Virus genome (UHGV): UHGV-0199997
Strand: one strand, 5' to 3'
DNA from: a virus
Length of the DNA stretch: 43,953 nucleotides
This document shows, in pieces, positions 6,981 to 43,953 of the stretch. Each line of letters begins with the position of its first letter. Within the stretch, counting starts at the first letter, position 1. Position numbers and translations under genes: made by a program. The notes beneath the pieces are model-generated. The model ran no database searches, was not told the origin of the DNA, and saw only the letters and a program-made list of their open reading frames with translations.

Positions 6981-8975
6981 ATGTCAAGCGGATGCGGTGA
7001 CGTTTTAAGCCTGGCGGATTTACAAACCGCCAAGAAACACCAGATTTTTGAAGCTGAGGTTATCACCGGCAAGTCCGGCGGTGTCGCTGGCGGTGCTGAT
7101 ATTGATTATGCGACCAATGCGGTTACAGGGCAGACCCAAAAGACACTACCTGCCGTGTTACGTGACGTGGGCTTCCGCCCGGCGGCATTTACGTTCGCCA
7201 CTGGAGGTACGCTGGGTGTTAATGACGCAGATTTAGCGGTTTTATGGCCTATTTCCGATGGTGGCGATGGTAACTATTACGCGTGGAAAGGCGCGCTGCC
7301 GAAGGTTGTGCCTGCGGCGTCGACCCCTCTAACCACCGGCGGCGTTTCCGATGAGGCTTGGATGCCTGTGACAGAGGCCGCCTTACGTAGTGATTTAGCT
7401 TCCAGTAGTGGGGCTGGTATGATAGGGACTACCTCAGGCGCTACGGTGCAAGATACTATTAATCAAACAGGAACCCAGCAAAAGGATTTACATCCATTTG
7501 TACCAACAGGTTCTTTCGGTTCTGGTGCTTCTTTCACTTCTACACTTCAAGTATTCGAACATAATGGCGAATATTATTCATACAAAGGACCAATTTCACC
7601 AGGTTCTACAGTCCCGGCAACACCATCATCCGATGCAAACTGGAAAAAAGAACCCGTGTCTGACTATATTGAAAATTACGGCGGCGGCGTGCATGTTGCC
7701 GACCAAACACCCGCGATATTAAAAGCTATAGATGCTGGTGTACGACGCATTGTTCTACCCAAGGGTGAGCTTAGGATGTCACCTTGTACCATACCGGGAT
7801 ACACCCAAGGGCTAACTTTTGTAGGTCAAGGTGCTAACCAGGCGTACTCAGGTACTACAGTAATAAAACCGTTGAACGATGGTCAGAACTATATTTTTGG
7901 CTCTGGTGACACTAATGATGGGCAAGATAGTATTAAGTTTGAAAACATCCAGTTCGACGGTGAGTGGCGGTGCAACCACGCCATACTGCATACTCGTGGT
8001 GCCGGTTGGTACTACGAGAAGTTAACTGGCAAGAGATTCAATACGTGGTTTATCTACGACGGTCAAGGACTTGCCAGATTTAGAGATATTTATTGCGAAG
8101 CCACTGATGCATCAGATATCTCAATCCGTGCAACGGGGGGTGGCATACGGGTGTATAGCGACTCTGTCCTGGACACTGTGGAAGTGTACGGAGGAAGCTG
8201 CCCATTAAGGTTATCAGCCGGTGGCAATCGAGCTAGCAATATCTTTTGTAATGGAGGGTATGATATCGGCGCTATAGCTTTAGAGCCACAAGATACTTCA
8301 ACAAATCATATAAACACGGCGTTAAGTAATATATATATAGGTGAGAGTACTAATACATCAGGTGTAGCTATCCCAATTTTAGCACTGTATGGAAACTCCG
8401 TAAGAAAAGTAGAATCTGTGCAAATATCTAACGCTCATTTTGTTCATGCATCAACCACATTGAATACTAACATGACAGTTATAAGGGCTGATAAAGTTAA
8501 TGGTTTTGTTATGTCTTCTTTTGATGCACTTGCCATGGGAGAATACAGCACATCTAGCCGACGTACATATAACTTCCTTAATGCAACTAATTCTACATCT
8601 ATGTTATTTTCTGCTGGCAGTATTAGAGGCGTAAATAATAATCCAATAGTATTGGGTGATGGATGCTCATTGAGCATAGATGCAGTTGAGTTTAATGGCT
8701 GGGGTACAAACTCTGATTCTGGCACTGAAAACAAAGCCGCTATCAGAACCACATCCTCCGATGCAAGGTGCGTGATAGGCTCATCATGTAACTTTACCGC
8801 AAGTCAAACAGACTCATACGCCGTTTGTGCTTATAATGAGTTTACGGTTAGCGCATCGATACTTAACATAAACTATAGTAGTTCTACAATATTCTACCCT
8901 GCTAACGTTAATTACAGTTACATATATAAACGTCCCGGTGGTAAGATAACTTTAGTTAACACTTTTAGTGCGTAG
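6981..8975 (+). CDS. tailspike / tail fiber (receptor-binding protein), mosaic
   Basis: 664-aa ORF with RBS AAGAGGA; GC-rich N-terminal anchor domain followed by an AT-rich, Ser/Thr/Asn/Gly-rich C-terminal part; last gene of the tail operon, followed by a strong terminator. Confidence 0.7.
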   Translation: MSSGCGDVLSLADLQTAKKHQIFEAEVITGKSGGVAGGADIDYATNAVTGQTQKTLPAVLRDVGFRPAAFTFATGGTLGVNDADLAVLWPISDGGDGNYYAWKGALPKVVPAASTPLTTGGVSDEAWMPVTEAALRSDLASSSGAGMIGTTSGATVQDTINQTGTQQKDLHPFVPTGSFGSGASFTSTLQVFEHNGEYYSYKGPISPGSTVPATPSSDANWKKEPVSDYIENYGGGVHVADQTPAILKAIDAGVRRIVLPKGELRMSPCTIPGYTQGLTFVGQGANQAYSGTTVIKPLNDGQNYIFGSGDTNDGQDSIKFENIQFDGEWRCNHAILHTRGAGWYYEKLTGKRFNTWFIYDGQGLARFRDIYCEATDASDISIRATGGGIRVYSDSVLDTVEVYGGSCPLRLSAGGNRASNIFCNGGYDIGAIALEPQDTSTNHINTALSNIYIGESTNTSGVAIPILALYGNSVRKVESVQISNAHFVHASTTLNTNMTVIRADKVNGFVMSSFDALAMGEYSTSSRRTYNFLNATNSTSMLFSAGSIRGVNNNPIVLGDGCSLSIDAVEFNGWGTNSDSGTENKAAIRTTSSDARCVIGSSCNFTASQTDSYAVCAYNEFTVSASILNINYSSSTIFYPANVNYSYIYKRPGGKITLVNTFSA

Positions 8976-11903: not shown

Positions 11904-11991
11904 CTACAACTCCAAAAGGTATGTGACCCTGTTTTATTAATTCACGCAGCCACGCGGCTGCACCTTTATCCCATTCATTGTAATAGTTCAT
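11743..11991 (-). CDS. N-terminal segment of the methyltransferase in an alternate frame
   Basis: ATG 11991 overlaps the TGA of the upstream 63-aa gene (ATGA); reads ...KPEDLDGFTQCHFF and would continue into AGIGGW if the A7 run at 11839-11845 were one base shorter. Confidence 0.4.
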   Translation of the reverse strand: MNYYNEWDKGAAAWLRELIKQGHIPFGVVDERSITEVKPEDLDGFTQCHFFRWHRRLASRAQTCGSFGRYASLDGKPALPTV

Positions 11992-12179
11992 TTGGCCACC
12001 AGAACTAACTCTTTACGCCCGAACGCCGTAACGTTACCTGTTACGTCTTCGATAACCAGTTTGCCGTTCGACTCTACGAACACTGTATCAACGGCAACAG
12101 GACGACGGGTCTTAACGTTGAAAATCATGTCGCCCGGTACGATGTCACGTGCTGGTTTGCGGTCATATTCGTGTTTCAT
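11988..12179 (-). CDS. hypothetical protein (63 aa)
   Basis: ORF with RBS AAGGAATTGAG before the ATG; lies upstream of and is coupled to the methyltransferase N-terminal frame. Confidence 0.5.
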   Translation of the reverse strand: MKHEYDRKPARDIVPGDMIFNVKTRRPVAVDTVFVESNGKLVIEDVTGNVTAFGRKELVLVAK

Positions 12180-12209
12180 TTCTCAATTCCTTATATTGTT
12201 GGTGTAGGA

Positions 12210-12494
12210 CTAACTATAGTAGTTCGCTATTAGGTCGTCAACCTGTTTGAACGAACCAACGACAAAAACATTTGCACCACGTTTGCGCATCCGCTCGTGC
12301 TCTCGTAACTGGTGCGGGTCAGGCTTCGTGCTTTCGTCTTTCTTAACCTCGACGAACCAGATGATGCCGCCGGGGAGAATTACCAGCAGGTCAGGAGCGC
12401 CGGAGCGCCCCTCGTAGGAAAGTTTACGAACGAGGCCACCAATGGCCTCGAATCGCTCTTTTGCGTATTTCTGTATTTTTCCTTCCGGGGTCAC
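12210..12494 (-). CDS. VRR-NUC domain nuclease
   Basis: 94-aa protein with the PD-(D/E)xK-like pattern GAPDLLVIL...FVEVKK...Q typical of VRR-NUC. Confidence 0.65.
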   Translation of the reverse strand: MTPEGKIQKYAKERFEAIGGLVRKLSYEGRSGAPDLLVILPGGIIWFVEVKKDESTKPDPHQLREHERMRKRGANVFVVGSFKQVDDLIANYYS

Positions 12495-15761: not shown

Positions 15762-15852
15762 CTTGATTTCTCGCTTTTAAGTTTCGTTTACTCCGGGAAC
15801 TGCCCGGCCAGTGGTTAGAAATATAATAGCTAACTATTCAGGTGTCAACACT

Positions 15853-17412: not shown

Positions 17413-17883
17413 TTATTCTTCTTCGAAATACTTGTTCTTGATTGCTGTCAAGCGTTCCAGGTATTCAGCCAGGTCTTCGTCTTTAATCGCAGCAATCTTC
17501 ATCTTCTTGCCGGTGAACTCTTCCAGCAGTTCATCTGAATCATCGCACGCGGCATCGCTAGGACCTTCGTTAATAGCATCGTCGATAGCCTGAATCTGGT
17601 CACGCAGAGACTGGTAATCTACCTCTTCCTTCTCTTCTTCCGGCTCTGGCGTTGGTTCCTCTACTTTAGCTTTACGCGGCTTGCGTTTCGGCTTCTCTTC
17701 TTCTGCCGGTTTAGTGTCGACGATGTCTTCACCTTCGACCGGGATTTCTTTTGTTGCTTCTTTTACAACATTAGGCTCAATTGTTGCGGTTTCAGCAACG
17801 ACAACTTGTTTCGCACTGTTCGCAGCAATCAGTTCATGTGCAACTACGAAACGTTCCAGTAATACTAAGAATTTCTCTAACAT
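17413..17883 (-). CDS. acidic hypothetical protein
   Basis: 156 aa with a Glu/Pro/Lys-rich low-complexity centre; RBS GAGGAGAG; first gene of the leftward operon, divergent from the XRE gene. Confidence 0.5.
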   Translation of the reverse strand: MLEKFLVLLERFVVAHELIAANSAKQVVVAETATIEPNVVKEATKEIPVEGEDIVDTKPAEEEKPKRKPRKAKVEEPTPEPEEEKEEVDYQSLRDQIQAIDDAINEGPSDAACDDSDELLEEFTGKKMKIAAIKDEDLAEYLERLTAIKNKYFEEE

Positions 17884-17916
17884 TTGTTTCTCTCCTCTCG
17901 TTTGGTATGCACTAAC

Positions 17917-17935
17917 TATAATAGCTAACTATTCA
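17917..17935 (+). promoter_or_regulatory. palindromic operator-like element in a divergent promoter region
   Basis: TATAATAGCTAACTATTCA contains AATAG-N4-CTATT; a near copy lies at 15821-15840; sits between the divergent genes at 17883 (-) and 18009 (+). Confidence 0.35.
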
Positions 17936-18008
17936 TTATGTCAATGGGCTTTTCTAAAATAATTAATATGGTACTATTCACATATCAACTGACTAAGGAG
18001 TAATTGAC

Positions 18009-18224
18009 ATGCAACCATCTGAACTAGGCATCCGTGTAGAACAACGCCGTAAAGAACTCGGTATCTCCCAGCGCCGTCTGGCGGTCCTGGCCGGTGTTTC
18101 CCAGGGCGCGATTAACCAGCTGGCACTTGGAGTAACTCAGGACGTCCGCCCGGCGACGCTGTTCAAGCTGGCGGAAGTGCTGGAAGTAGACGCCAAGTGG
18201 CTGGCGTTCGGTGAAGGGGCTTAA
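18009..18224 (+). CDS. XRE-family HTH transcriptional regulator (Cro/CI-like)
   Basis: 71 aa; HTH core ISQRRLAVLAGVSQGAINQL. Confidence 0.8.
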   Translation: MQPSELGIRVEQRRKELGISQRRLAVLAGVSQGAINQLALGVTQDVRPATLFKLAEVLEVDAKWLAFGEGA

Positions 18225-18238
18225 CGCCCCTTTCTTTT
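18216..18238 (+). terminator. rho-independent terminator
   Basis: GGGGC-TTAAC-GCCCC hairpin followed by TTTCTTTT; the XRE stop codon lies in the loop. Confidence 0.6.
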
Positions 18239-20826: not shown

Positions 20827-21039
20827 TTATTTATCGCCTGCAAACCACGCGTGCGCAGAATCATAGAAACGACATTTACTTAACATGTCTACCGGCATCT
20901 TAATAATGCGCGTCGGTTCCGACAAATGATTAGGTTTACATATTTCTGCATAGAATCCGCTGTCGGTAATTTCTGACGCAAACTTAAACCAGTATTTAAC
21001 TTTACCGTTCTCAAAGTAACAACCCATACGCCCAATCAT
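20827..21039 (-). CDS. hypothetical protein (70 aa)
   Basis: ORF with ATGA coupling to the upstream HTH gene. Confidence 0.45.
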   Translation of the reverse strand: MIGRMGCYFENGKVKYWFKFASEITDSGFYAEICKPNHLSEPTRIIKMPVDMLSKCRFYDSAHAWFAGDK

Positions 21040-21218
21040 TTCACGTTCTCCTTAATCCACGCTTCAACTTTATTACGGTCAAATGTTCCAGGTAAACGGC
21101 GGCCCATAACCTTAATACAACAGTCGGGGAATTTACCACTGCGTAACCAGTTATTAATTGTCTGACGTGTCACCCCAATACGTTCTGCTACTTCATTCTG
21201 GGTCATGTAATGTTGCAT
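21036..21218 (-). CDS. small HTH DNA-binding protein (AlpA/excisionase-like fold)
   Basis: MTQNEVAERIGVTRQTINNWLRSGKFP helix-turn-helix; ATG 21218 with RBS AGGAG; divergent from the early rightward operon. The track start is 21290. Confidence 0.55.
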   Translation of the reverse strand: MQHYMTQNEVAERIGVTRQTINNWLRSGKFPDCCIKVMGRRLPGTFDRNKVEAWIKENVK

Positions 21219-21623: not shown

Positions 21624-21659
21624 TTGCACACCCCAATATAATAGGATACTATTCACTTA
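21624..21659 (+). promoter_or_regulatory. conserved promoter element (TTGCAC-N17-TACTATTCACTTA)
   Basis: One of at least five near-identical ~36-bp elements, each 25-40 bp upstream of an RBS and start codon; this one precedes the gene at 21687. Confidence 0.5.
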
Positions 21660-22848: not shown

Positions 22849-22881
22849 TGTTCAATAGTTTGGGATTTTACTGAGTGACTT

Positions 22882-22915
22882 ACGCTGCTACACAGCAGCG
22901 TATCATTTTTCTCAT
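22882..22915 (+). terminator. rho-independent terminator
   Basis: ACGCTGCT-ACAC-AGCAGCGT hairpin followed by ATCATTTTTCTCATTTTT. Confidence 0.65.
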
Positions 22916-23150: not shown

Positions 23151-23186
23151 TTGCACGCTAAGATAGAATAGGCTACTATTCACTTA
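23151..23186 (+). promoter_or_regulatory. conserved promoter element (TTGCAC-N17-TACTATTCACTTA)
   Basis: Same element family as 21624-21659; precedes RBS GAGAGGAGAG and ATG 23211. Confidence 0.5.
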
Positions 23187-26700: not shown

Positions 26701-26721
26701 TCTATTTTCTATAATGACTAG

Positions 26722-26750
26722 TTGACTATTATCTACGACCCTACTATATT
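26722..26750 (+). promoter_or_regulatory. sigma70-like promoter (TTGACT-N17-TATATT)
   Basis: Good -35 and -10 hexamers with 17-bp spacing, immediately after the terminator and ~35 bp upstream of the gene at 26785. Confidence 0.55.
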
Positions 26751-31902: not shown

Positions 31903-32088
31903 TTAACAAGCTGATGTTGTCCAGTAATCACCATAATCATTTACGTAAAATTTCTTCATACCAGACCACCCGAAGTTCTTACATGTCTTTTTGAATCGCT
32001 TCATTACCTGTGTTCTTGTCAGCATCAAAACACTACCGTTTCCATCTCTTGCGAAATCTCCGCCGGACTTATATGGTTTCTTTTCCAC
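31903..32088 (-). CDS. small AT-rich moron protein (61 aa)
   Basis: Minus-strand ORF between portal and head-morphogenesis genes with its own upstream promoter element and downstream terminator; GTG start with RBS AGGGGG; clearly AT-richer than its flanks. Confidence 0.5.
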   Translation of the reverse strand: MEKKPYKSGGDFARDGNGSVLMLTRTQVMKRFKKTCKNFGWSGMKKFYVNDYGDYWTTSAC

Positions 32089-32109
32089 TTTTATGCCCCC
32101 TGTTTAAAT

Positions 32110-32145
32110 TAACCGAATAGTACCCTATTATATTGGTGTCTGCAA
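32110..32145 (-). promoter_or_regulatory. conserved promoter element (TTGCAG-N17-TACTATTC), minus orientation
   Basis: Member of the ~36-bp element family; drives the 61-aa minus-strand gene. Confidence 0.5.
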
Positions 32146-33697: not shown

Positions 33698-33727
33698 AAG
33701 GCCCCTTATGGGGCCTTAATTTTATTT
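33698..33727. terminator. bidirectional rho-independent terminator
   Basis: AAGGCCCC-TTAT-GGGGCCTT followed by AATTTTATTT; shared by the convergent genes 33233-33694 (+) and 33722-34243 (-). Confidence 0.65.
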
Positions 33728-34243
33728 AAATCGCGCTGGCATTAGCACCATAAATGCAGTGTTTGAAAATGATATTTTGCATCCTCTGATTTGGTCCTGG
33801 AAATCGAAACGAGCGATTTCATTTTTGTATGCCTTAGAAATCTTGTGCGCGTCCGCCAAGTAGCGCAGGGTGAACCCTATGCTGTCAACCGCCCCCGGCG
33901 TGATGTGCGCCACACGTCTCCAGTCAGGAAACCTTCCGTCTACAACATCTACCGGAAGTGTACATATAAGCGCACGACTATCGTCATAGAAAGAAACGCT
34001 GCTGTTGTCGTGGTCTACTTCCGCGTAGTTAAATTTAGAAGGCTCTCTCCCTTTGATGTCTATGAGAACCGCATTCTCAACGTTTGTCTTAACGTTGTCG
34101 CAGAACAATCTATGACCGTCCGTAGACACTATCAATCCCTCCGGGTCTATGTAAAAAGCATTCAAATAATAGCGCACATCATTTTTAGCTCTGCATATTT
34201 TTGCCCCTACATACGCAGGGAAAGTAATTACTGTAGTAGCCAT
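33722..34243 (-). CDS. DnaN (beta sliding clamp)-like mini-protein
   Basis: 173 aa; VSTDGHRLF matches the conserved DnaN TDGHRL motif and the C-terminus FMVLMPARF matches the DnaN YVVMPMRL tail; own promoter element upstream; RBS GAGGAGGAG. Confidence 0.55.
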   Translation of the reverse strand: MATTVITFPAYVGAKICRAKNDVRYYLNAFYIDPEGLIVSTDGHRLFCDNVKTNVENAVLIDIKGREPSKFNYAEVDHDNSSVSFYDDSRALICTLPVDVVDGRFPDWRRVAHITPGAVDSIGFTLRYLADAHKISKAYKNEIARFDFQDQIRGCKISFSNTAFMVLMPARFK

Positions 34244-34264
34244 TTTAACTCCTCCTCGTTTCGA

Positions 34265-34300
34265 TAACTGAATAGTACCCTATTATGTTGGGGTGTGCAA
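34265..34300 (-). promoter_or_regulatory. conserved promoter element (TTGCAC-N17-TACTATTCAGTTA), minus orientation
   Basis: Member of the element family; immediately upstream of the DnaN-like gene. Confidence 0.5.
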
Positions 34301-34366
34301 ACTATTTATTAGCCTATTCCAGTTATTCCGCTCAATTGTAAATGTTGGAATAAACTATTCGAATAG

Positions 34367-34509
34367 TTGACTTTTCACTAAAAATATGCTAAGCTCCACC
34401 TGAGCTTGTGAAGTATGAACAAGCGACCGCGGCGCGGGCAGGTAACGGAGCGGGACGTAAGTCCTGAGTGTAGTTACGCTGACGCGTTCGGAAGGGCCAT
34501 ACTCTATTG
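34367..34509 (+). promoter_or_regulatory. promoter (TTGACT-N17-TAAGCT) plus conserved leader element, copy 2
   Basis: -35 at 34367-34372 and -10 at 34390-34395; conserved blocks at 34399-34432 and 34487-34509 are identical or near-identical to copy 1. Confidence 0.5.
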
Positions 34510-41362: not shown

Positions 41363-41388
41363 AAGGCCCCTTTCGGGGCCTTTTTCTT
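41363..41388. terminator. bidirectional rho-independent terminator
   Basis: AAGGCCCC-TTTC-GGGGCCTT followed by TTTTTCTT; U tracts on both strands; shared with the convergent minus-strand cassette. Confidence 0.75.
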
Positions 41389-41941
41389 ACAAACCTAATT
41401 TTAAAGCAATGTCTATAACGTTCGATTTAACGTCACCTGGTATGATGTAGGTGTCGTAATCTTTTACACCGCTAACATCATACAGATAACCACGGCTGTC
41501 CCCCTCAAACGTATAGCCGTCGCGATGGAGGCGAACGATTCGCACGTCATGACCCGCGGCGACGATAGGGGCTACTTCGCTGGCGAACCCGCCGTCGGAC
41601 ACTACAAAAACTTCGTCGCCGTCTGGCAAGTTTTCAGCAAGATACTTACCGAAATAATCACTACCAAGTACCGGTTTAATGAATTGCTCAGATATAGCAA
41701 TCATGAACTGACGCCGCGACAAGCCATTAAGGAAGCCTTCTGACTTTTCTTTCCGTGCCCGGTCGTCGTAGCCGTCGATAAACTCGTGGTAAGCATCCGG
41801 GCCTAATGCCGCCAGAGCGATATTGAACATTGGATTCTTGAAACTGGTGATTCCCTTCGCAAAGCCCATTTCTACCAGCGCCATAGCAAGTGTGTCTTTC
41901 CCGCAACCCGCCGGGCCATTAAGAATAATTACCTTAGCCAT
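41387..41941 (-). CDS. P-loop nucleotide/polynucleotide kinase (dNMP kinase / Pnk kinase-like)
   Basis: Walker A ILNGPAGCGKDT; the C-terminal pattern resembles T4 dNMP kinase; its start overlaps the stop of the HAD phosphatase gene. Confidence 0.6.
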   Translation of the reverse strand: MAKVIILNGPAGCGKDTLAMALVEMGFAKGITSFKNPMFNIALAALGPDAYHEFIDGYDDRARKEKSEGFLNGLSRRQFMIAISEQFIKPVLGSDYFGKYLAENLPDGDEVFVVSDGGFASEVAPIVAAGHDVRIVRLHRDGYTFEGDSRGYLYDVSGVKDYDTYIIPGDVKSNVIDIALKLGL

Positions 41942-42429
41942 TATTTATCGCTCCCGTGTGGTTTTAAGTGTGTAGAGTTCCCGTTACAGTCGTATTCAGT
42001 AACCGCGTGAGTGGTTATACCGAGTCCGCGGAAATGCTTTATTACCGCGGGAGAGTCGTCGAATGCGCACAAGATTCTTTCCAGCCCGATAGCACGTAAC
42101 ACCTCTTCTTTAATTACGATGTCTTTTCTGTTGTCGTGTTTGCTGCGCATTATCAGCGTGTCAAACTTAACGTTATTTTCTCGCAACCATTTACGAGTCC
42201 CATCCTCAGCGTCGTCGCTTCGACCGGTAAGGATGATTACGGTCATCCCGGTATGCCACAGCGTGTTGCACAAGTGAATGTTGTCATATATCGGCGCATC
42301 ATCTTTGCACGCCATGTTAAATGGCCTCCAAGCCCATGTTTCGCCGTAGTTATCTTTCGGCAGCAGGTGCAAACGATGTGTACCATCTGCTAATGTCCCG
42401 TCTAAATCGAAAATTACAATATCTTTCAT
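41941..42429 (-). CDS. HAD-family phosphatase resembling the T4 polynucleotide kinase 3'-phosphatase domain
   Basis: HAD motif I FDLDGTL, motif II ILTGR, and the segments DNRKDIVIKEEV and FDDSPAVIKHF align with recalled T4 Pnk phosphatase-domain motifs. Confidence 0.7.
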   Translation of the reverse strand: MKDIVIFDLDGTLADGTHRLHLLPKDNYGETWAWRPFNMACKDDAPIYDNIHLCNTLWHTGMTVIILTGRSDDAEDGTRKWLRENNVKFDTLIMRSKHDNRKDIVIKEEVLRAIGLERILCAFDDSPAVIKHFRGLGITTHAVTEYDCNGNSTHLKPHGSDK

Positions 42430-43556
42430 CCCAGCATCTCCGGTGAAATAGTTAAACGCGCAACCTCGCCATATTCGGCGCTATATGTAATTACGTTTGC
42501 ACTGCGGCCTGACATCCATCCGCCGCGAGAGGCGTAGGCGTCTTTAGCCGCCAGGGTGCGGTGTTGCTCGACAATCATGTTACGACTTTCTACAATCTTC
42601 TGGTGGTGCAGGTGGCCCACGTGAGCGTAGCTGTAAACACTCTCGCCGAACGCTTTACGGAACTTGGCAATCATAACAGGTTCGATAGCGTCGAATCGCG
42701 CCTTATGGCCGTGATGAAAGAACAGAGTCGTTTTGCCGTGTCGCACCATCTTGTAAACATCCGGCGACGTATCGACGAACACACGCGGCTCGTTGTCGTA
42801 CAGCGTGCTAAACATCTCAGCCAACCAAATCATTCCGCTTTCGTCGTGGTTCCCTTGCACGATAAGCAAGCGAACATTTTTATGCTTAACAAGGGCCATA
42901 TCAACAACACGGCGGACCATACGAATCATGTAGCGGACAAGTTTCTGATAACGGGTGTCAGCATCAAGAACATTACCACTCGCCGGTGTAACGGCAACCA
43001 GACTATCGAAGTGCGCAAGGTCCCCAAGCAGGTTAATAACCCCTGTTCCCGCATCCGGTGCTTTCTGAAACGCGGCATCGAACCAGCGGGAGAACAGGTC
43101 TTCTGCAATCTTCATATCCCAGTCGTCGCCGCTTTCATCGGCCCAGGCCAGCATACCGAGATGGAAATCAGATACCGTGTAAAGATTGAGTAGTTTATCG
43201 TCGCGTTTAGCCCGAACGGCTTTAACAGGAGCAACGGGGGTAATCTCCGACTTCATCCCTTCGATTACGGCTTTCATCAACTCTACCTGACGTTCGGCAT
43301 CGGTGTCGGTCTTAACCCATTGCAGCTTAGTGTTGCCGAACTCGTCCACCAGTGACGACGTGCCTTTAATCTTGTAGCCGTCTGGTACAAGATGACTGAC
43401 GTCGCGGCCGTGCCCTACGCCTTTCTTAGCCAGCTTCGCTTTACGGATACGAATAACGCGATCTGAGATGCCATATTTACGGGCTATATCGATATTCCTC
43501 AATCCGGCGTTCAATTCTTCCTGTAACTGTTCGTCGGTTATTTTCTTCCGGGCCAT
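42426..43556 (-). CDS. HTH domain fused to a calcineurin-like metallophosphoesterase
   Basis: N-terminal HTH (NIDIARKYGISDRVIRIRKAKL); phosphoesterase motifs DFHLG, GDLAHFD, GNHDE, HHGH, GHLHH. Confidence 0.65.
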   Translation of the reverse strand: MARKKITDEQLQEELNAGLRNIDIARKYGISDRVIRIRKAKLAKKGVGHGRDVSHLVPDGYKIKGTSSLVDEFGNTKLQWVKTDTDAERQVELMKAVIEGMKSEITPVAPVKAVRAKRDDKLLNLYTVSDFHLGMLAWADESGDDWDMKIAEDLFSRWFDAAFQKAPDAGTGVINLLGDLAHFDSLVAVTPASGNVLDADTRYQKLVRYMIRMVRRVVDMALVKHKNVRLLIVQGNHDESGMIWLAEMFSTLYDNEPRVFVDTSPDVYKMVRHGKTTLFFHHGHKARFDAIEPVMIAKFRKAFGESVYSYAHVGHLHHQKIVESRNMIVEQHRTLAAKDAYASRGGWMSGRSANVITYSAEYGEVARLTISPEMLG

Positions 43557-43594
43557 GCTTACGTCCTCGTGTTTAGGATTTGTCCTATACTAGC

Positions 43595-43786
43595 TCACTT
43601 CTCGTTAACATTCGAGTTGCACGCCCAGATTAAAATAAACACCCACGGCAGCAGAACCCATCCGAGAAACAGGTTAGCCATGAATATCGCTAACTTCGCT
43701 TTATGGTTACGGAAGTATGCAACCAGGAAAGGTGCGAAATAGGCGAGCAGTGCAAACAGAATTAAGGAAACTGGTAAACTTGACAT
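43595..43786 (-). CDS. superinfection-immunity-like small membrane protein
   Basis: YFAPFLVAYFRNHKAKLAIFMANLFLGWVLLPWVFILIW matches the recalled Imm-type pattern (YF.P.IIAF.R.H...AIF.LNL.LGWT..GW..ALIW); ATG 43786 with RBS GAAGGGG; first gene of the minus-strand cassette. Confidence 0.55.
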   Translation of the reverse strand: MSSLPVSLILFALLAYFAPFLVAYFRNHKAKLAIFMANLFLGWVLLPWVFILIWACNSNVNEK

Positions 43787-43809
43787 TTTAAACCCCTTCA
43801 TTGTTGGTG

Positions 43810-43845
43810 TAAGTGAATAGTACCCTATTATATTGGGGCGCGCAA
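43810..43845 (-). promoter_or_regulatory. conserved promoter element (TTGCGC-N17-TACTATTCACTTA), minus orientation
   Basis: Member of the element family; drives the four-gene minus-strand cassette. Confidence 0.5.
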
Positions 43846-43953
43846 GTAGTGTGCTAGAATAAGTTTGCGCCTAGTGTCGCACACGAAAAGCGGGTGGTTC
43901 CCGTCTGGCGCATTTATCGTTAACCTGTAACCTCTTAACCAAAGGATTAAAGA

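Follow-up and report, generated by a model that had tools for sequence, protein, structure and literature searches.

The 43,953-nucleotide (nt) viral genome UHGV-0199997, referred to hereafter as the window, was found to carry a 14-bp inverted repeat, AATAG-N4-CTATT (the dyad), over the -10 hexamer, the spacer, or the -35 hexamer of 11 predicted promoters, including that of the gene for a small HTH_3 (XRE/Cro-type) protein. These promoters are proposed to form one promoter-operator regulon with the HTH_3 protein as its repressor, and the balance of evidence leans towards this whole chain of claims, in which the promoter activity, the repression, the choice of binding protein, and a timing by graded affinity are all predictions from sequence. 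The window is a Kagunavirus genome of the subfamily Guernseyvirinae; it is about 90% identical to the Escherichia phages KMB36, Snoke, fBC-Eco01, Golestan, and others of that genus, and its length matches that of a whole genome. Kagunavirus phages are lytic, tailspike-bearing siphoviruses.

Seven perfect copies of the dyad occur in the window where 0.035 would be expected, together with four one-mismatch copies against 0.93 expected (200 first-order Markov simulations), so that the palindrome first put forward in an original prediction made from the letters of the window proved to be real. When every 5-gap-5 dyad was scanned without bias, AATAG-N4-CTATT came out on top with a score of 18, the null maximum being 10. 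According to the map of open reading frames (ORFs), ten of the 11 sites are intergenic and the remaining one overlaps the last codons of the upstream gene. The predicted promoters bearing these sites, grouped here as classes A, B, and C beside the HTH_3 gene's own, and the genes of the candidate binding proteins are as follows.

21624-21659, plus strand: A1, with a -35 of TTGCAC at 21624-21629, the dyad AATAGGATACTATT at 21640-21653, and a -10 of TACTAT at 21647-21652; it would serve small early rightward genes from 21687 (plus strand).
23151-23186, plus strand: A2, with the dyad at 23167-23180 and the -10 at 23174-23179; it would restart rightward transcription past the terminator at 22881-22902 and serve 23211 onward, toward the lysis genes.
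32110-32145, minus strand: A3, with the dyad at 32116-32129 and the -10 at 32117-32122; it would serve a 61-residue cassette gene (31903-32088) set between the portal and head-morphogenesis genes.
34265-34300, minus strand: A4, with the dyad at 34271-34284 and the -10 at 34272-34277; it would serve a 173-residue clamp-like gene (33722-34243).
43810-43845, minus strand: A5, with the dyad at 43816-43829 and the -10 at 43817-43822; its operon would comprise the genes for an Imm-like membrane protein (43595-43801), an exonuclease, a polynucleotide kinase, and a deoxynucleoside monophosphate (dNMP) kinase, down to 41387.
12213-12241 (read 12241-12213), minus strand: B1, TTGACG-17-TATAGT, 10/12 to the sigma-70 consensus, with a one-mismatch dyad at 12218-12231 in the spacer; it would serve 11988-12179 and the methyltransferase, helicase, and primase genes.
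15820-15848, minus strand: B2, TTGACA-17-TATATT, with a perfect dyad at 15825-15838 in the spacer; it would serve the gene for an Enc34-type single-stranded DNA (ssDNA)-binding protein and the DNA polymerase gene.
17915-17944, minus strand: B3, TTGACA-18-TATAGT, with a perfect dyad at 17920-17933 in the spacer; it would serve the 156-residue gene at 17413-17883 and is divergent from the HTH_3 promoter.
17965-17978, plus strand: one-mismatch dyad AATATGGTACTATT of the HTH_3 promoter.
26717-26750, plus strand: C1, TTGACT-17-TATATT at 26722-26750, with the one-mismatch dyad ACTAGTTGACTATT at 26717-26730 over the -35; located past the lysis-module terminator and before the packaging and structural genes.
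34362-34395, plus strand: C2, TTGACT-17-TAAGCT at 34367-34395, with the one-mismatch dyad AATAGTTGACTTTT at 34362-34375 over the -35; divergent from A4 and ahead of the capsid genes from 34620.
18009-18224, plus strand: monocistronic HTH_3 gene, 71 residues, between its dyad-bearing promoter and a terminator at 18213-18233.
21036-21218, minus strand: HTH_17 (excisionase/MerR-like) gene, 60 residues, the rival candidate binder.
17413-17883, minus strand: gene for an acidic 156-residue protein, divergent from the Cro-like gene, in the position that a cI gene would take.

The five class A elements lie where the original prediction had placed them, and TTGCNC-N17-TACTATTC, with two mismatches allowed at most, was matched at exactly these five places in the window against 0.95 expected, a count reached by none of 100 shuffles. 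Alignment of the five copies revealed no conservation upstream of the -35; similarity begins sharply at an invariant TTGC, gives way to a variable -35-proximal part of the spacer, and resumes in a near-invariant block, A.A.AATAGG.TACTATTC..TTA, which extends only a few bases beyond the -10. All five can thus be written as TTGC..-17-TACTAT, the right half-site of the dyad overlapping the -10, and the claim that the spacer is conserved beyond what sigma-70 needs is borne out by this block, since it holds a dyad that is kept across genera. Each copy lies approximately 28-35 nt upstream of a start codon furnished with a purine-rich ribosome-binding site, again in agreement with the earlier description. 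The genes behind A1 and A2 are small early rightward ORFs, and those behind A3 to A5 form three minus-strand units inserted in the structural region, for which class A elements are the only promoter candidates found. Six key sigma-70 positions are kept in class A, the 17-bp spacing is fixed, and the elements are orientated toward their genes with short leaders. On these features, class A is predicted with high confidence to consist of sigma-70 promoters read by the host RNA polymerase. The consensus sequences of sigma-32, -28, -24, and -38, as we take them to be, do not fit. A perfect TATAAT embedded in the class A spacer was also considered as the -10 and rejected because no conserved -35 stands 16-18 bp upstream of it and conservation begins at TTGCAC.

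Promoter-like sequences were also observed on the opposite strand at three of these elements. The reverse side of A1 reads TCGATA-17-TATATT (21663-21635, minus strand; 9/12 to sigma-70) and faces the HTH_17/helicase-primase operon, and that of A3 reads TTTAAA-17-TATTAT (32103-32131, plus strand; 9/12) and faces the head-morphogenesis gene; the A1 and A3 cores may therefore fire both ways under one operator. An extended -10-like site, TGC-TAGAAT at 43852-43860 (plus strand), lies back-to-back with A5, and 3 bp separate its putative -35, TTGGGG, from the A5 dyad. Plus-strand tail genes begin at position 1 of the window, which has the appearance of a whole genome, circularly permuted and opening with an ATG, and it is these genes that the site at 43852-43860 would serve.

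In class B, the same block of about 21 bp stands in the opposite orientation within the spacer of leftward replication-gene promoters, in three copies. The segments at 15821-15840 and 17917-17935 had been described as degenerate copies of the class A element, a description which does not hold: both contain perfect dyads and belong to the stronger leftward promoters B2 and B3, which match the sigma-70 consensus at 11/12 positions. Similarly, the related core reported at 12196-12234 does contain the dyad, with one mismatch, and it turned out to belong to a separate class B promoter, B1. Class B was among the best sigma-70 matches (10-11/12) in an independent 15-kb consensus scan, and class B and C promoters alike score 10-11/12. 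Just 3' of B2, a leader hairpin, CCGGG-N5-CCCGG (15793-15807, RNA of the minus strand), was noted in the messenger RNA of the Enc34-type ssDNA-binding protein; the same hairpin is retained in Kagunavirus, Jerseyvirus, Cornellvirus, and lineages L052 and L099, and in a looser form in Serratia phage Tsm2. As no T-run follows it, the hairpin is not a terminator; it may play a part in RNA processing or stability.

The dyad of the HTH_3 promoter differs from the consensus by a G-to-T change which creates a TGn extended -10 (TG at 17969-17970, -10 TACTAT at 17972-17977) in a promoter whose -35 is weak, and this arrangement of dyad and extended -10 is kept in other Kagunaviruses. The earlier count of copies was correct for class A and missed three further dyads (17965-17978, 26717-26730, and 34362-34375). 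Likewise, the suggestion of a single regulon is supported by the conserved dyad, and its extent has to be widened to at least 11 promoters, two of which precede late genes. Because the dyad stands in three different registers with respect to the hexamers, it cannot serve for recognition by the polymerase or by an activator that needs a fixed geometry, and the arrangement is most naturally read as one of steric repression by a dimeric protein.

The elements had been expected to recur in related phages, and they were found at homologous positions in Kagunavirus, Jerseyvirus, and Tsm2. The complete genomes of Kagunavirus LM08P1 and K1B4 each hold 13 dyad sites with at most one mismatch, most of them at homologous promoters. 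A set of 73 distinct class A contexts, drawn from approximately 39 Kagunavirus genomes or loci, showed hardly any variation in the -35, the half-sites, the -10, or the start region, whereas 5-7 spacer bases on the -35 side and one central base are free; the pattern is one of position-specific constraint and not of recent copying. Jerseyvirus Ent1 and Kenya-K28, which differ from the window in both genus and host, carry four to five perfect dyads each, at the homologous imm-operon, replication-operon, and early rightward promoters. Their late promoter has a dyad with one mismatch, and Tsm2 has perfect dyads at two homologous promoters. That the dyad is kept across genera while the neighbouring spacer bases vary argues for a trans-acting dimeric protein and for a single regulon. 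Even the imperfection of the late promoter C1 is conserved, as ACTAG..CTATT in 30 distinct Kagunavirus contexts and as AATAG..CTAGT, mismatched in the opposite half, in 11 distinct Jerseyvirus contexts.

Some ten lineages were gathered from IMG/VR, metagenomes, and GenBank, the distant ones being recovered via the conserved neighbouring gene for the 156-residue protein. In lineages L052, L155, L076, L126, and L170, the same promoters carry AATA-N6-TATT with the fifth base free, L097 and L105 have three perfect copies each of TTAGC-N2-GCTAA at these promoters, and the Cornellvirus phages VSiA and SE1 show a fuzzier ATTA-N6-TAAT and lack AATAG-N4-CTATT. Such a site, which changes in concert at several promoters per genome, argues for a phage-encoded trans factor rather than a shared host factor, and the lineage-variant operators span two Salmonella-infecting genera, Jerseyvirus and Cornellvirus. 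The unbiased dyad scans of these short loci, which have low power, gave scores at or near the null maximum for Jerseyvirus, L100, and L097, with counts of perfect sites far above expectation. L100 had appeared to be a clean AATAC-N4-GTATT variant, an impression weakened by the mixed fifth positions in the rest of its contig (L170). In Cornellvirus and Tsm2, the helicase-primase gene was observed to share a strand with the Cro-like gene, an orientation opposite to that which it has in Kagunavirus and Jerseyvirus.

Taken together, the symmetry, the registers, and the conservation suggest that a phage-encoded dimer probably binds the dyad, which would make it a candidate operator. As to the identity of this dimer, the HTH_3 protein is the candidate given slightly better than even chances. 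The product of 18009-18224 matches Pfam HTH_3 (E = 2.3e-12), and the solved structure that it matches best is Cro of phage 434, likewise 71 residues long (residues 6-68, E = 5.4e-7); the gene is annotated as "Cro" in Golestan. An HTH_3 gene adjoins the divergent promoters in every examined lineage where that region was recovered. The protein is 35-50% identical between lineages, and its helix-turn-helix, GVSQGAINQLALG, is near-invariant within the Kagunavirus clade (one V-to-A change, in L128) while the identity of the whole protein falls to 78%. Distant homologues in unrelated phages were sought by a word-indexed protein search, which gave only relatives of at least 78% identity from the same phage group, and a homologue search with the Tsm2 HTH_3 protein gave no match.

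The original prediction had left the regulator open between the XRE-type and the small helix-turn-helix protein; the former is favoured by its presence across lineages, its likeness to 434 Cro, and the dyad at its own promoter, and the latter, HTH_17, is disfavoured by its absence from VSiA and apparently from Tsm2. HTH_17 is 82% identical between Kagunavirus and Jerseyvirus and was found only in these two genera. A tblastn search of all phage records with HTH_17 returned 443 matches, none of them from Serratia, so that Tsm2, which bears the dyad, apparently lacks the protein; no homologue was found in the genome of the Cornellvirus VSiA (L043), the one complete genome searched beyond Kagunavirus and Jerseyvirus, or in the searched stretches of SE1 (L044) and Tsm2 (L045). 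VSiA was seen to carry instead a 377-residue "transcriptional regulator" on the minus strand inside its structural module. For the 156-residue protein, no Pfam family, DNA-binding signature, helix-turn-helix, or solved-structure match was obtained. Its first 23 residues, MLEKFLVLLERFVVAHELIAANS, are invariant or near-invariant in the five lineages aligned (Kagunavirus, Jerseyvirus, two Cornellvirus-type phages, and Tsm2), and a second gene with this N-terminus seems to be present in some Kagunaviruses.

Several observations weigh against the proposed regulon and its regulator. Only 7/12 positions of the class A hexamers agree with the sigma-70 consensus, and the consensus scanner did not list them; from this score, these promoters are expected to be weaker or regulated. 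Helix 3 of the HTH_3 protein reads QGAINQ in Kagunavirus, QSLITH in Jerseyvirus, and QGMLNH in Tsm2, all of which share AATAG-N4-CTATT, and the Cornellvirus helix, QSAISH, is close to that of Jerseyvirus, yet Cornellvirus lacks this dyad; operator and helix both differ between lineages, and the mapping is many-to-one, with three helices for AATAG-N4-CTATT. The HTH_3 control region of Tsm2 holds only a three-mismatch dyad, and some of the lineage-variant operators are statistically marginal. Finally, the ordering of events by graded affinity, which draws on the conserved mismatches alone, is speculative.

It is conceivable, albeit unlikely, that the dyad is an operator bound by HTH_17, the 156-residue protein, or an unrecognised small early protein, many of the early ORFs being devoid of a family assignment. 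The want of clean covariation between helix 3 and the operator speaks for another binder, and HTH_17 is present in both genera with the strict AATAG-N4-CTATT (Kagunavirus and Jerseyvirus) and absent from Cornellvirus, which lacks it. A temporal RNA-sequencing paper on a Kagunavirus, which gives coarse gene-level classes, assigns a helix-turn-helix gene to the earliest class and a gene labelled "specific DNA binding" to the middle one; read from gene order alone, these may be HTH_17 and HTH_3, respectively. The early placement would suit HTH_17 as the binder, and the assignment as a whole is neutral on the model. Against these points stand the perfect dyads at two homologous promoters of Tsm2, which apparently has no HTH_17, and the acidic nature of the 156-residue protein, which has neither a DNA-binding family nor a solved-structure match, whereas HTH_3 is the only recognisable DNA-binding protein found across lineages (in a family-library scan of part of the ORFs) and its gene is physically linked to two dyads. 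Less probable still is the view that there is no dedicated regulator, the promoters being copies spread by recombination as cassette junctions and the symmetry arising from bidirectional -10-like hexamers. Identity between copies does reach into the 5' leader, the element does serve as a junction for cassettes that move between slots, and the 9/12 reverse sides of A1 and A3 do face genes in need of a promoter. However, the half-sites are fixed while the adjacent spacer and the centre vary over the 73 contexts and in genera with diverged flanks; the same dyad recurs in class B and C promoters, although these are no copies of class A, and its place there, within the spacer or across the -35, is not explained by any hexamer; and the left class A half-site falls within the spacer, outside any usable reverse -10.

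Very improbable, lastly, is the notion that the elements are promoters of a phage RNA polymerase or that the dyad is bound by a host transcription factor, even though PHIRE, a tool for phage-polymerase promoters, picks up the motif in Golestan and fBC-Eco01. No ORF in the window is able to encode an RNA polymerase, as the only ORFs of at least 650 residues are those of the tape measure, a tail protein, the tailspike, DNA polymerase A, and the helicase-primase; the phage-polymerase reading is refuted by this gene content, and the elements moreover show canonical -35/-10 spacing. A shared host factor is opposed by the difference of the dyad between lineages, two Salmonella-infecting genera included, and we know of no E. 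coli regulator site that matches the dyad.

In the proposed regulon, the host sigma-70 polymerase would initiate at all of these early promoters upon entry of the phage DNA. The HTH_3 dimer would then accumulate from its extended -10 promoter, occupy the dyads, and block RNA polymerase, shutting off the early and replication promoters and limiting its own synthesis. The perfect operators at the early promoters would be filled first, while the one-mismatch operators at the HTH_3 promoter and the two late-gene promoters would be filled last or only partly; the resulting shift from early to late genes would require neither a phage polymerase nor a phage sigma factor. A bolder version, which is regarded as tentative and rather doubtful, has one 434-Cro-like protein running the whole lytic programme through an operator present in almost all promoters, with operator imperfections ordering the shut-off, the block acting as a recombination linker that brings any acquired gene into the regulon, and the operator variants of sister lineages representing immunity-like specificity groups in phages incapable of lysogeny.

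The Cro protein of phage 434 binds 14-bp operators whose ends are conserved and whose centre is variable. The resemblance of the present system lies in the 71-residue regulator with 434 Cro as its closest solved relative, in 14-bp dyads with the outer 4-5 bp conserved (AATA(G)-N-(C)TATT here and ACAA-N6-TTGT in 434), in operators that overlap early promoters as well as the regulator's own, and in the placement of the regulator gene in a divergent promoter region. Unlike in 434, no cI partner was recognised (an integrase was not searched for), and single operators in three registers cover at least 11 promoters in place of a tripartite cooperative operator, the HTH_3 control region having two dyads 45 bp apart and not three adjacent ones. 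The available parts of the genome papers (PMC7203180 and PMC9825357) describe the phage group as strictly lytic and report no lysogeny genes, a further difference from 434. The regulon thus appears Cro-like in its working and unlike a lambdoid immunity region.

Besides its proposed regulatory role, the class A block behaves like a conserved 5' boundary of swappable gene cassettes. The slots were compared in six complete Kagunavirus genomes, a comparison that concerned loci L041, L042, L174, and L176 and positions 31903-32145, 33722-34300, and 41387-43845 of the window. In the six genomes, first genes of unrelated kinds follow the block: four genomes have four unrelated genes in slot A3; the 173-residue clamp-like gene occupies slot A4 in the window and in K1B4 and slot A3 in NRG857CP3; a 94-residue gene sits in slot A3 of LM08P1 and in slot A4 of LM02P1; and slot A5 contains the Imm-like gene in five genomes and, in LM08P1, a gene for a 108-residue protein with a hydrophobic N-terminus. 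Alignment of slot A3 demonstrated near-identity over the upstream flank and the promoter, and over much of the leader in three of the four genomes, which was gone by the start codon. The 3' ends of two cassettes are closed by terminators.

33698-33717, both strands: bidirectional terminator at the 3' end of the A4 cassette.
41363-41382, both strands: bidirectional terminator at the 3' end of the A5 operon.

No terminator was detected after the A3 gene, and no stem-loop at the class A promoters. Within the window, the 5' leader is shared between A1 and A4 and among A2, A5, and B1. In K1B4 (L042), near-identical class A leaders, tcgaaacgaga(g/c)ataaggaatttagaa, were observed at 8886 and 19210 ahead of different genes, suggesting intragenomic copying of promoter and leader. 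Since the promoter-operator-leader block is near-identical at every site, it offers a homologous 5' junction for exchange between phages and between slots, and an incoming gene placed behind it would join the same regulon.

Two families of mobile elements invite comparison, namely the promoter-early stem-loops (PeSLs) of T4-type phages, reportedly described by Arbiol et al. in 2010 as mobile regulatory cassettes, and the "morons" of lambdoid phages, said to have been described by Juhala, Hendrix et al. in 2000. As in both, variable and unrelated ORFs are bounded by a short, conserved promoter block, and one ORF can occupy different slots in different genomes. Two of the three cassettes here end in terminators. 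Unlike PeSLs, the block has no promoter-adjacent stem-loop and carries an operator, so that incoming genes would come under the phage repressor, and, in contrast to PeSLs and morons alike, the cassettes include replication-related genes and not accessory genes alone.

The motif itself is already in the literature as PHIRE promoters. For Golestan, the available parts of the report (PMC7203180, Table S4) list seven "conserved promoter sequences", for example TAATAGGGTACTATTCATTA, with the motif TAATAGGGTACTATTCA.., and for fBC-Eco01 those of PMC9825357 give seven copies with the consensus tgAATAGTa-ccTATTat-T, which is the reverse complement of the class A block, and assign the motif to a phage-encoded RNA polymerase. 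This assignment is a misassignment. The available parts of both papers list 20-mers and make no mention of the -35, the dyad, the three geometries, a regulator, or the cassette junction. No study of start-site mapping, binding, or transcriptional control in these phages was found in the literature, and nothing on promoters was found in the K1 phage collection and BASEL papers.

Cro-type repression of sigma-70 promoters is textbook material and would hence come as little surprise to the specialist. Even so, the analysis corrects the published phage RNA polymerase assignment and provides an example of a regulatory element which doubles as a hotspot of cassette exchange. Of the coliphages and Salmonella phages put forward for therapy, biocontrol, and synthetic biology, those of Kagunavirus and Jerseyvirus rank with the most frequently isolated, and the regulation of these widely used phages, being unstudied, is worth a small experimental study. 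If the proposed regulon is true, one small protein and one 14-bp site would account for the timing of almost all genes, and the phages would offer a compact, engineerable switch, the rule for a payload gene being to place it behind the 36-bp block.

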